From assembly GCF_054482525.1 (NCBI RefSeq), contig NZ_CM137006.1: a stretch of 64,000 nt of DNA; one strand, written 5' to 3'. Position numbers and translations under genes: made by a program. The notes beneath the pieces were generated by a model. It made no database searches. It was not told the origin of the DNA and saw only the letters and a list, made by a program, of their open reading frames with translations. Below are positions 12,400 to 14,766 of this stretch, piece after piece (position 1 is the first letter of the stretch; every line of letters starts with the position of its first letter).

Positions 12400-12698
12400 T
12401 CCCCTTACAACATGGACTGATCCTCGCGGCAATCTTATTCGTTCTTGGCTTAACTGGTCTGGTTATCCGTCGCAATCTGCTGTTTATGCTGATTGGTCTG
12501 GAAATCATGATTAACGCCTCTGCGCTGGCCTTTGTGGTCGCCGGAAGCTACTGGGGCCAGACCGACGGTCAGGTGATGTATATTCTCGCCATCAGCCTCG
12601 CGGCGGCAGAAGCGAGTATCGGCCTAGCGCTGCTGCTGCAACTTCACCGTCGTCGCCAGAACCTGAACATCGATTCAGTAAGTGAGATGCGCGGATGA
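12396..12698 (+). CDS. nuoK: NADH:quinone oxidoreductase subunit K
   Basis: 100-aa membrane subunit, 4-nt overlap with nuoJ. Confidence 0.95.
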
Positions 12699-14536
12699 AC
12701 ATGCTTGCCTTAACCATTATTTTGCCATTGATTGGCTTTGTCCTGCTGGCGTTCTCCCGTGGGCGCTGGTCTGAAAACGTCTCGGCGATCGTTGGCGTTG
12801 GCTCTGTAGGCCTGGCGGCACTGGTAACTGCCTTTATTGGCGTCGACTTCTTCGCTAACGGCGAGCAGGCATACAGCCAGCCGCTGTGGACATGGATGTC
12901 GGTAGGCGACTTTAACATCGGTTTTAACCTGGTGCTGGACGGCCTGTCGCTGACCATGCTCTCGGTGGTCACTGGTGTGGGTTTCCTTATTCACATGTAC
13001 GCCTCCTGGTATATGCGCGGTGAAGAGGGCTACTCTCGCTTCTTCGCTTACACCAACCTGTTCATCGCCAGCATGGTAGTTCTGGTGCTTGCCGACAACC
13101 TGCTGCTGATGTACCTCGGCTGGGAAGGCGTGGGCCTGTGCTCCTATCTGCTGATCGGTTTCTATTACACCGATCCGAAGAATGGCGCAGCGGCAATGAA
13201 AGCGTTCGTCGTGACCCGTGTGGGTGACGTCTTCCTCGCTTTCGCGCTGTTCATTCTTTACAACGAACTGGGCACCCTGAACTTCCGCGAAATGGTGGAA
13301 CTGGCACCAGCGCACTTTGCTGACGGCAATAACATGCTGATGTGGGCGACGCTGATGCTGCTGGGCGGTGCGGTCGGTAAATCTGCGCAGTTGCCGTTGC
13401 AGACATGGCTTGCCGACGCGATGGCGGGCCCGACGCCTGTCTCCGCGCTGATCCACGCCGCAACGATGGTAACCGCGGGTGTCTACCTGATCGCCCGTAC
13501 CCACGGCCTGTTCCTGATGACGCCGGAAGTTCTGCATCTGGTGGGCATTGTTGGGGCGGTTACGCTGCTGCTGGCCGGTTTTGCGGCGCTGGTACAGACC
13601 GACATCAAACGTGTTCTCGCTTACTCTACCATGAGCCAGATTGGCTACATGTTCCTCGCGCTTGGCGTACAGGCATGGGATGCGGCGATTTTCCACTTGA
13701 TGACTCACGCGTTCTTTAAAGCGCTGCTGTTCCTGGCATCCGGTTCCGTCATTCTGGCCTGCCATCACGAACAGAACATCTTCAAGATGGGCGGTCTGCG
13801 TAAATCTATTCCGCTGGTTTATCTCTGCTTCCTGGTGGGCGGCGCAGCACTGTCGGCACTGCCGCTGGTCACTGCGGGCTTCTTCAGTAAGGATGAGATC
13901 CTCGCGGGTGCGATGGCGAATGGTCATATCAATCTGATGGTGGCTGGTCTGGTCGGTGCGTTTATGACCTCGCTCTACACCTTCCGTATGATTTTCATCG
14001 TCTTCCACGGAAAAGAACAAATTCACGCTCACGCCGTGAAAGGGGTAACTCACAGCCTGCCGCTGATTGTGCTGCTGATCCTTTCCACCTTCGTTGGCGC
14101 ACTGATTGTACCGCCGCTGCAGGGCGTGCTTCCGCAAACGACGGAGCTGGCGCACGGCAGCATGTTGACCCTGGAAATTACCTCTGGTGTGGTCGCGGTG
14201 GTCGGCATTCTGCTGGCAGCCTGGCTGTGGCTGGGTAAACGTACTCTGGTGACCTCCATCGCCAACAGTGCGCCGGGCCGTCTGCTGGGCACCTGGTGGT
14301 ACAACGCCTGGGGCTTTGACTGGCTGTACGACAAAGTGTTCGTCAAGCCGTTCCTGGGTGTTGCCTGGTTGCTGAAACGCGATCCGCTGAACTCAATGAT
14401 GAACATCCCGGCTGTCCTTTCCCGCTTTGCAGGTAAAGGTCTGCTGTTAAGCGAGAACGGTTATCTGCGCTGGTATGTGGCATCCATGAGCATCGGTGCG
14501 GTCGTGGTGCTGGCACTGTTGATGGTACTGCGTTGA
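12695..14536 (+). CDS. nuoL: NADH:quinone oxidoreductase subunit L
   Basis: 613-aa antiporter-like membrane subunit. Confidence 0.95.
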
Positions 14537-14557
14537 GTTGTTGGCTGAGTGAATATA

Positions 14558-14574
14558 CCCGGCGTTGCGCCGGG
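14558..14574 (+). other. Stable hairpin in the nuoL-nuoM intra-operon spacer
   Basis: CCCGGCG-TTG-CGCCGGG, a 7-bp GC stem with 3-nt loop, 22 nt after the nuoL stop, inside a 230-bp untranslated spacer. Confidence 0.5.
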
Positions 14575-14766
14575 TCTGTGAACTAAGAATAAATTTTAGG
14601 TAACTGTTCCTGAAGTACAGGCGTCATCGGCGAAGTCAGACCGGATACCGCCAGCGCACAGCAACCGGAGCGTACTTAAGTACGTGAGGATTGCGAGCAC
14701 TGCCGGGATTCGGGCTGGCGAGTGAGATAGCCTGAGCAGGAGTAAATATAAGGGACATACTTAGCT

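Follow-up and report, generated by a model that had tools for sequence, protein, structure and literature searches.

The window analysed here, a stretch of 64,000 nt from contig NZ_CM137006.1 (RefSeq assembly GCF_054482525.1), holds the E. coli nuo operon on the + strand, on which the window features described below also lie. According to the ORF list, the nuoL CDS occupies 12695-14536 and ends with a TGA stop codon at 14534-14536, and the nuoM CDS occupies 14767-16296 and begins with an ATG at 14767-14769; both assignments agree with matching E. coli records, which annotate nuoL and, in RefSeq, the nuoM start. The positions of these two codons bear out the 230-bp separation of nuoL and nuoM (14537-14766) reported in the original prediction, and this spacer is one of two length alleles in E. 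coli. The remaining junctions from nuoA to nuoN measure 15, 93, 2, -4, 46, -4, 14, 11, -4, -4 and 6 bp. As had been claimed, all of them overlap or stay under 100 bp, the maximum within the window being 93 bp, and the 230-bp nuoL-nuoM gap is therefore a genuine outlier.

The spacer is a mosaic composed of a GC hairpin, an AU-rich linker, a hairpin of ~137 nt, the nuoM Shine-Dalgarno (SD) sequence and the ATG. The GC hairpin (CCCGGCG-UUG-CGCCGGG), recognized in the sequence as an inverted repeat, was found exactly where it had been predicted, at 14558-14574. It starts 21 nt past the nuoL stop codon and consists of a strong 7-bp G+C-rich helix closed by a 3-nt loop, with imperfect arms that widen the inverted repeat to 14545-14587. 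Next comes the linker UCUGUGAACUAAGAAUAAAUUUUAGGUAACU (14575-14605), which is presumably single-stranded and a candidate RNase E site; it contains the motif AAUAA(A/U)UUUUAG common to the Salmonella alleles L137 and L138. The long imperfect hairpin (14606-14742) was delimited by MFE folds and by alignments with the Salmonella locus L140, with K-12 and with the basal alleles described below. At its centre lies a perfect 14-bp palindrome, CGTACTTAAGTACG (14671-14684), containing the stretch GTACTTAAGTAC (14672-14683) that had been predicted at 14686-14697, so that this second palindrome does exist, at a site ~14 nt to the left. A putative nuoM SD sequence, AAGGGA (14750-14755), is located 7 nt 3' of the long hairpin and 11 nt 5' of the ATG, at the position that AAGGAA takes in the basal and K-12 alleles.

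Folding of the spacer gave an MFE of -89.1 kcal/mol, compared with -69.1 ± 4.4 kcal/mol for dinucleotide shuffles (z = -4.6; none of 200 shuffles was as good). Both the GC hairpin and the long hairpin (14618-14734) survived the addition of flanking coding sequence to the fold. The predicted unpaired probabilities in the MFE fold were 0.29 for the SD and 0.21 for the AUG, with outer pairings that shift with the folding context. A scan of the spacer with 4227 Rfam covariance models returned as best matches only miRNA models at chance level (E 0.65 or worse), and a full-text literature search found nothing relevant on the nuoL-nuoM spacer.

Among the possibilities raised in the original prediction was an inserted REP-like sequence. 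Insertion held for the second palindrome, which belongs to a 118-bp RSA/ERIC-like hairpin, and the REP assignment failed for the GC hairpin. The REP consensus (GCCGGATG...CATCCGGC with a CTAC tail, an imperfect palindrome of ~35-40 bp) was not found at 14558-14574, which reads CCCGGCGTTGCGCCGGG and carries no GATG, TTATCC or CTAC motif. REPs are dispersed in hundreds of copies per genome, whereas the GC-hairpin region is single-copy: the first 66 nt of the spacer, GC hairpin included, matched exactly one place per genome in 723 genomes (blastn, distant mode). REP/BIME elements, for instance those of malE-malF and hisJ-hisQ, resemble the present case in placing a stable hairpin soon after a stop codon within an operon, but they differ from this single-copy hairpin, which is without the REP consensus. 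A barrier to 3' exonucleases is the classical role of REPs. Canonical REPs occupy the position of the GC hairpin in the K-12 allele and in the Salmonella alleles L137, L138 and L140.

The interior of the long hairpin, 118 bp at 14618-14735, is the core of a low-copy dispersed palindromic repeat, as defined by blastn, by its paralogues and by a consensus fold. In the blastn search (query 9-126, corresponding to window 14618-14735) the core matched 4 places per E. coli genome in the median and 7 at most, and at least 4919 of 5426 E. coli genomes had a place covering at least 80% of the repeat query. Its paralogues reside in the intergenic gaps pheM-pheS (L001 1501-1618 and L004 1501-1618), pyrH-frr (L128 1201-1289) and qseE-qseG (L127 1201-1303), the last in the opposite, antisense orientation. 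The pheM-pheS copy lies in the pheS 5' UTR, directly past the pheM attenuator terminator. The E. coli paralogues fold to hairpins of ~140-150 nt, each with its own locus-specific outer stem, and of the 47 pairs in the consensus hairpin that RNAalifold gave for six copies at four loci, 14 show compensatory changes. Plasmid-borne copies account for 11 of 21311 E. coli core matches (e.g. NZ_CP147085.1 27230-27283, on a 162-kb plasmid).

We assign the core, probably and on the basis of length and copy number, to the 'RSA' repeats of the K-12 annotation. The K-12 GenBank annotation contains an 'RSA' repeat of 150/151 bp in six copies (PMC5172473); the core has five blastn copies in K-12, and its full hairpin of ~140-150 nt is of similar size. 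K-12 differs from the window in having no core copy at nuoL-nuoM, and the K-12 RefSeq record annotates no repeat features at nuoL-nuoM or pheM-pheS. The core is also multi-copy and non-coding, has terminal inverted repeats and shows presence/absence polymorphism at the orthologous nuoL-nuoM site in Salmonella, features typical of MITEs. To our knowledge, no partner transposase of the core repeat has been described.

Two further features of the core sequence were recorded. A 13-codon ORF with a GTG start, MRIASTAGIRAGE*, is present in the 3' arm at 14684-14725, and the pheM-pheS, pyrH-frr and qseE-qseG copies have an equivalent open frame that ends at the same stop position; the frame is conserved, probably trivially, because the copies have no indels there. 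In addition, AGUACGUGAGGA (14679-14690) matches at 11 of 12 positions the universally conserved sequence of the 23S sarcin-ricin loop, AGUACGAGAGGA, and could form a GNRA-capped mimic. This likeness is probably a coincidence and was set aside, since neither the alpha-type nor the ERIC apexes share it.

Comparison of the junction across Enterobacteriaceae revealed a series of spacer alleles. The 230-bp allele was detected at 99% identity or more to the window in 723-724 of 5426 complete E. coli genomes, including O157:H7, REL606/B-type and PCN033, and the remaining E. coli genomes have a spacer of 163-165 bp that megablast could not align with the 230-bp allele. The K-12 spacer allele holds a canonical REP (GTAGGTCGGATAAGCCGCC...GCATCCGAC). 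A basal spacer of 76 bp with one small hairpin is found in Salmonella Rissen, Citrobacter braakii and Enterobacter kobei. This mini-hairpin covaries (AGGCCUC-UGUCA-GAGGCCU versus AGGCCCC-UGCUG-GGGGCCU) and is followed by 3-4 nt, AAGGAA and the ATG. Salmonella has at least five length alleles at nuoL-nuoM (76, 230, 250, 251 and 313 bp) and E. coli two. The spacer is thus highly polymorphic, whereas the original prediction had named a spacer identical in all relatives as the outcome that would speak against it. The core is present in the 230-, 250-, 251- and 313-bp Salmonella alleles, and the 76-bp allele has the mini-hairpin only. In place of the window's GC hairpin, the 250-, 251- and 313-bp alleles have a canonical REP. 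In the 313-bp allele (S. enterica, L138 288-600) an insertion of 62 bp is nested in the 3' arm of the core, and the arms contain several paired substitutions.

The motif order in two of these alleles indicates where the core is situated. In the 250-bp Salmonella allele (L140 351-600) the order is GAATTCGTTGAAAATC, AAGTCC, core, GGGACTT and AAACAAGGAACAAAGATCACC-ATG, and in K-12 (L002 501-663) it is GAATTCGTTGAAAATC, CGGTCC-TGAC-GGGAC and TTTTACAAGGAATAAAGATCGCC-ATG; the core therefore sits between the two halves of the mini-hairpin. The outer stem of the window, GUUCCUG/CAGGAG, is by sequence comparison the diverged counterpart of the ancestral mini-hairpin. An earlier idea that the GC hairpin is the counterpart of the basal mini-hairpin was dropped, since in the Salmonella alleles the long hairpin takes the mini-hairpin site and the GC hairpin the REP site. 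Insertion of the core into the loop of a pre-existing mini-hairpin is the reading that the alignments favour. It is also possible to regard the mini-hairpins as deletion remnants of an older full-length element, but four genera have the short form, and phylogenetic parsimony on this account favours insertion. The position of the core in L140 and the locus-specific stems of the paralogues would suggest, more generally, insertion into pre-existing hairpin loops. As candidate target-site duplications, which are TA for ERIC-type elements, TA dinucleotides are found at 14601-14602 and 14743-14744 in the window, Salmonella L137 has ATC on the left, and many, but not all, alpha-proteobacterial copies described below are flanked by TA or TTA. 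The excess length of the spacer is explained by a 118-bp dispersed palindromic repeat sitting in a small conserved hairpin.

Across the alleles a common order recurs, in which the nuoL stop is followed by a REP or GC hairpin, an AU-rich linker and an SD-adjacent hairpin, and then by the SD and the ATG. Every allele examined, from four genera, has the SD-adjacent hairpin, with covariation; the hairpin or REP after the stop codon is a feature of the long alleles only, and the basal 76-bp allele is without it.

The 230-bp allele extends beyond E. coli to E. whittamii and to Salmonella. Mapping of mismatch positions revealed a tract of 312 bp (14529-14840), spanning the spacer and the initial 74 nt of the nuoM gene, in which the window and S. 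enterica subsp. arizonae CCUG 6322T are 100% identical, and three further Salmonella genomes have 0-1 mismatches to the window spacer. The flanking nuoL and nuoM sequences are only ~87-91% identical to the Salmonella genes, and such near-identity of the spacer between diverged flanks makes lateral import likely. The left edge of the exchanged tract is at most 8 bp from the nuoL stop, which is the spacer boundary, and five mismatches to K-12 are clustered at 14773-14802, so the foreign tract includes a short part of nuoM. In Salmonella the haplotype with the element varies, occurring in four lengths and with many substitutions, and in E. coli it is uniform, from which we infer import from an arizonae-like Salmonella. 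The allele was thus probably brought into E. coli from Salmonella by recombination, judging from these identity patterns; transfer in the opposite direction, from Escherichia to Salmonella, is possible.

The apex of the long hairpin, GGA-GCGUAC-UUAA-GUACGU-GA(G) (14667-14688), resembles that of ERIC. Alignment of the ERIC apex (CCCCAG-GA-GCUUAC-AUAA-GUAAGU-GA-CUGGGG) with the window apex (CC-GGA-GCGUAC-UUAA-GUACGU-GA-GG) gave identity at 18 of 22 positions, with a compensatory change of a G-C to a U-A pair, and both have the architecture stem-(G)GA-GCKUAC-NUAA-GUAMGU-GA-stem. ERIC/IRU elements (~127 bp) are, like the core, long imperfect palindromes in transcribed intergenic DNA. The core is likewise intercistronic, in nuo, pheST, pyrH-frr and qseEGF, and forms a long RNA hairpin that is presumably transcribed, given its position in operons. 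A covariance model built from alpha-proteobacterial copies matched an ERIC copy weakly (26.9 bits, E ~1e-3). By contrast, the similarity of the arms of ERIC and the core was no better than that of shuffles (z = -0.7 and 0.7, against z ~10 for nuoLM versus pheMS), the ERIC ends TATAC...GTATA are absent from the core, and copy numbers differ, with a median of 9 per genome for ERIC and 4 for the core. The ERIC query used here was a 44-mer that proved genuine, with a median of 9 places per genome, and a verified ERIC copy folds to the same apex architecture. With unrelated arms, the core is ruled out as an ERIC in the strict sense, but it shares the ERIC apex module. It adds a new locus to a class of palindromic repeats already known from enterobacteria. 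ERIC hairpins within mRNA are reported to introduce RNase E sites and to change how stable the adjacent mRNA is (PMC3184786; PMC2267715), and Correia/NEMIS and other MITEs, which are co-transcribed, have been reported to affect mRNA stability (PMC3184786). Correia/NEMIS and bacterial MITEs resemble the core in being non-coding, hairpin-forming, multi-copy and polymorphic for presence at orthologous sites; they differ in that in the core the centre, not the termini, is most conserved, and in that the core appears to be lodged in the loop of an older hairpin.

The apex module is widespread. The exact 22-mer GGAGCGTAYTTAAGTACGTGAG was found at more than 120 loci in species-representative genomes, for an estimated ~0.3 matches expected by chance in 298 Gb. 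Among the matches listed, the phyla and classes represented are the Alpha-, Gamma- and Deltaproteobacteria, the Firmicutes (Listeria grayi) and the Planctomycetes (Scalindua), and several copies per genome are present in Mesorhizobium, Asticcacaulis and Devosia. Other carriers include Bosea, Brucella daejeonensis, Acidocella, a Pseudomonas, Candidatus Scalindua, Listeria grayi and a Desulfobacterales MAG. In 112 of the 117 distinct copies among these matches the apex stem forms, and the same 117 copies have a median of 51 arm-to-arm pairs and a median fold z of -7.4. The arms are wholly different between taxa, yet complementary, and the apex caps a long hairpin in each. An alignment of 20 alpha-type copies has 31 consensus pairs, 22 of them with compensatory changes. 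An alignment of all phyla (MAFFT followed by RNAalifold) recovered the apex alone, the arms having diverged too far to be aligned, while per-class alignments succeeded. Copies that the covariance model found without an exact apex vary most in the loop (UUAAA, UUUUC, UCGA), and their stem covaries; the loop therefore appears dispensable, with the stem and the GA-rich internal loop conserved. An Rfam scan of ten loci, alpha-proteobacterial and Listeria, yielded matches at chance level only, and a full-text literature search for the apex and the alpha-type flanking sequences returned no printed match.

Several copies carry additional structures. In several Mesorhizobium copies (L032 298-429, L034, L037, L045 1257-1388 and L087 12643-12842) a second small palindromic repeat, ggcctacgccggccgtagcc...cttcggccggcgaaggcc, is nested at the CCGG adjoining the apex. 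A different small hairpin insertion, agttctactgcg.cgcagtagaac, is present in L053, L056 and L102, and in L011 part of the apex is duplicated in tandem. The apex matched only one of 2.9 M viral contigs (L136 4625-4646, IMGVR_UViG_3300047542_000005).

With crude gene calls, 88 of the 91 classifiable copies among the matches listed are intergenic, and half lie between convergent genes; in tandem gene contexts, again among the matches listed and with crude gene calls, 25 copies are antisense and 7 sense. Mismatches of the G:T type outnumber A:C mismatches on one strand (568 versus 385), which suggests folding as a single strand. The strand test and the gene orientation thus give conflicting hints as to whether RNA or single-stranded DNA is the folded molecule. 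We tentatively propose, though with more doubt than confidence, that the core is the E. coli form of an undescribed cross-phylum hairpin superfamily that includes ERIC and is characterized by a near-invariant apex and freely covarying stems. The proposed members would be numerous per genome in Rhizobiales and Caulobacterales and would also occur in Listeria grayi, Pseudomonas, Scalindua and Desulfobacterales. Such elements may favour landing in pre-existing hairpin loops, and the apex could be the recognition site of a conserved factor, be it the long-sought enzyme that mobilises ERIC-type elements, an RNA-binding protein or an RNase.

For the nuoL-nuoM junction itself, we favour, with a probability of roughly 0.55, a transcribed intercistronic palindromic spacer that was probably imported from Salmonella, has an RSA-like core lodged in an SD-adjacent hairpin and acts as a processing/stability module, being neither a terminator nor a REP. 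A role in mRNA processing or stability appears the most plausible one on our analysis, given the SD-adjacent hairpin in every allele, the post-stop hairpin or REP in every long allele and the precedent of ERIC and REP. RNA polymerase would read through the spacer, and the two hairpins and the linker would together form the module. RNase E would cut within the AU-rich linker (14575-14605). Upstream of it, the GC hairpin or REP would protect nuoA-L against 3' exonucleases, and the long downstream hairpin would serve as a protective 5' stem-loop for the nuoM-N segment and would leave the SD AAGGGA free for independent initiation at nuoM. The last step is at odds with the MFE fold, which predicts that the SD and AUG are partly paired. 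NuoL and NuoM are 1:1 subunits, so differential stability of their mRNA segments is not obviously needed, and because the 76-bp basal allele is without the upstream hairpin, a two-hairpin module is not universal.

The best of the alternatives, which we consider possible although rather unlikely, is that the 118-bp repeat is a passenger, a MITE-like insertion, selfish or relic, that a permissive spacer tolerates. Its hairpin would be kept by the biology of the element, and the allele would have spread by neutral recombination. The arms could then have stayed complementary because propagation of the element, as opposed to nuo expression, depends on it. Such tolerance would account for the coexistence of the 76-, 163-, 230-, 250-, 251- and 313-bp alleles with an intact nuo operon and for the Salmonella allele with an extra 62-bp insertion nested in the 3' arm. 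It is likewise consistent with a multi-copy family that is mostly intergenic (88 of 91 copies among the matches listed) and that occurs in both orientations relative to transcription, as seen in the antisense qseE-qseG copy and in the 25 antisense and 7 sense copies in tandem contexts among the matches listed. It does not readily explain why an SD-adjacent hairpin with covariation is found in every allele examined from four genera, why the long alleles have repeatedly and independently come to carry a hairpin or REP after the stop codon, or why the copies elsewhere in E. coli are fixed within the housekeeping operons of almost every genome (4919/5426).

A role at the DNA level is improbable. 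The palindrome would in that case act as a cruciform or protein-binding site related to recombination or replication, which would explain the exchange between genera and would suit the perfect 14-bp palindrome at the centre, the left end of the exchanged tract, which falls no more than 8 bp from the stop codon and spacer boundary, and the location of half of the classifiable copies among the matches listed between convergent genes. The ~50 complementary pairs, however, extend far past a protein-sized site, the excess of G:T over A:C mismatches (568 versus 385) suggests single-strand folding, and we know of no protein that binds the palindrome.

Slightly less credible still is a partial intrinsic terminator, in which the GC hairpin would halt some polymerases and lower expression of the distal subunits. 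This partial attenuator had been offered in the original prediction, and the strong 7-bp G+C-rich stem 21 nt past the stop codon is what one would look for, but the stem is followed by UCUGUGAA instead of a U-tract, no U-tract follows either hairpin, and in the basal alleles it is UUAAAAAGG that comes after the mini-hairpin. A consensus scan detected neither terminator-like nor plus-strand promoter-like sites in 14537-14766, and nuoM and nuoN, which encode subunits that complex I needs, lie downstream in the same operon; the attenuator was accordingly abandoned. Least probable of all is an independent sRNA gene or small ORF within the spacer, such as the GTG ORF at 14684-14725, for although its frame and stop are kept in the nuoLM, pheMS, pyrH-frr and qseEG copies, this conservation is trivial in copies without indels, the ORF is located inside a stable helix, no plus-strand promoter-like site or Rfam match accompanies it, and the alpha-proteobacterial relatives have no equivalent ORF.

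The nuo operon spans 15 kb and encodes 13 subunits that have to be produced in balanced amounts. At the nuoM junction a hairpin always stands by the ribosome-binding site, often with a second one after the nuoL stop, a pattern that points to a processing/stability module open to testing. Strains frequent in the laboratory and among pathogens, namely the B/REL606 type and O157:H7, differ from K-12 at this junction, so results on nuo mRNA obtained in K-12 may not transfer to them. The region also provides a clear case in which Salmonella and Escherichia have exchanged an intergenic cassette together with very little flanking sequence. What the analysis adds is the two length alleles in E. coli, the probable import from Salmonella and the apex found across phyla, and an ERIC-like apex extending from Listeria to Mesorhizobium would offer a handle on how ERIC-type elements move or act.
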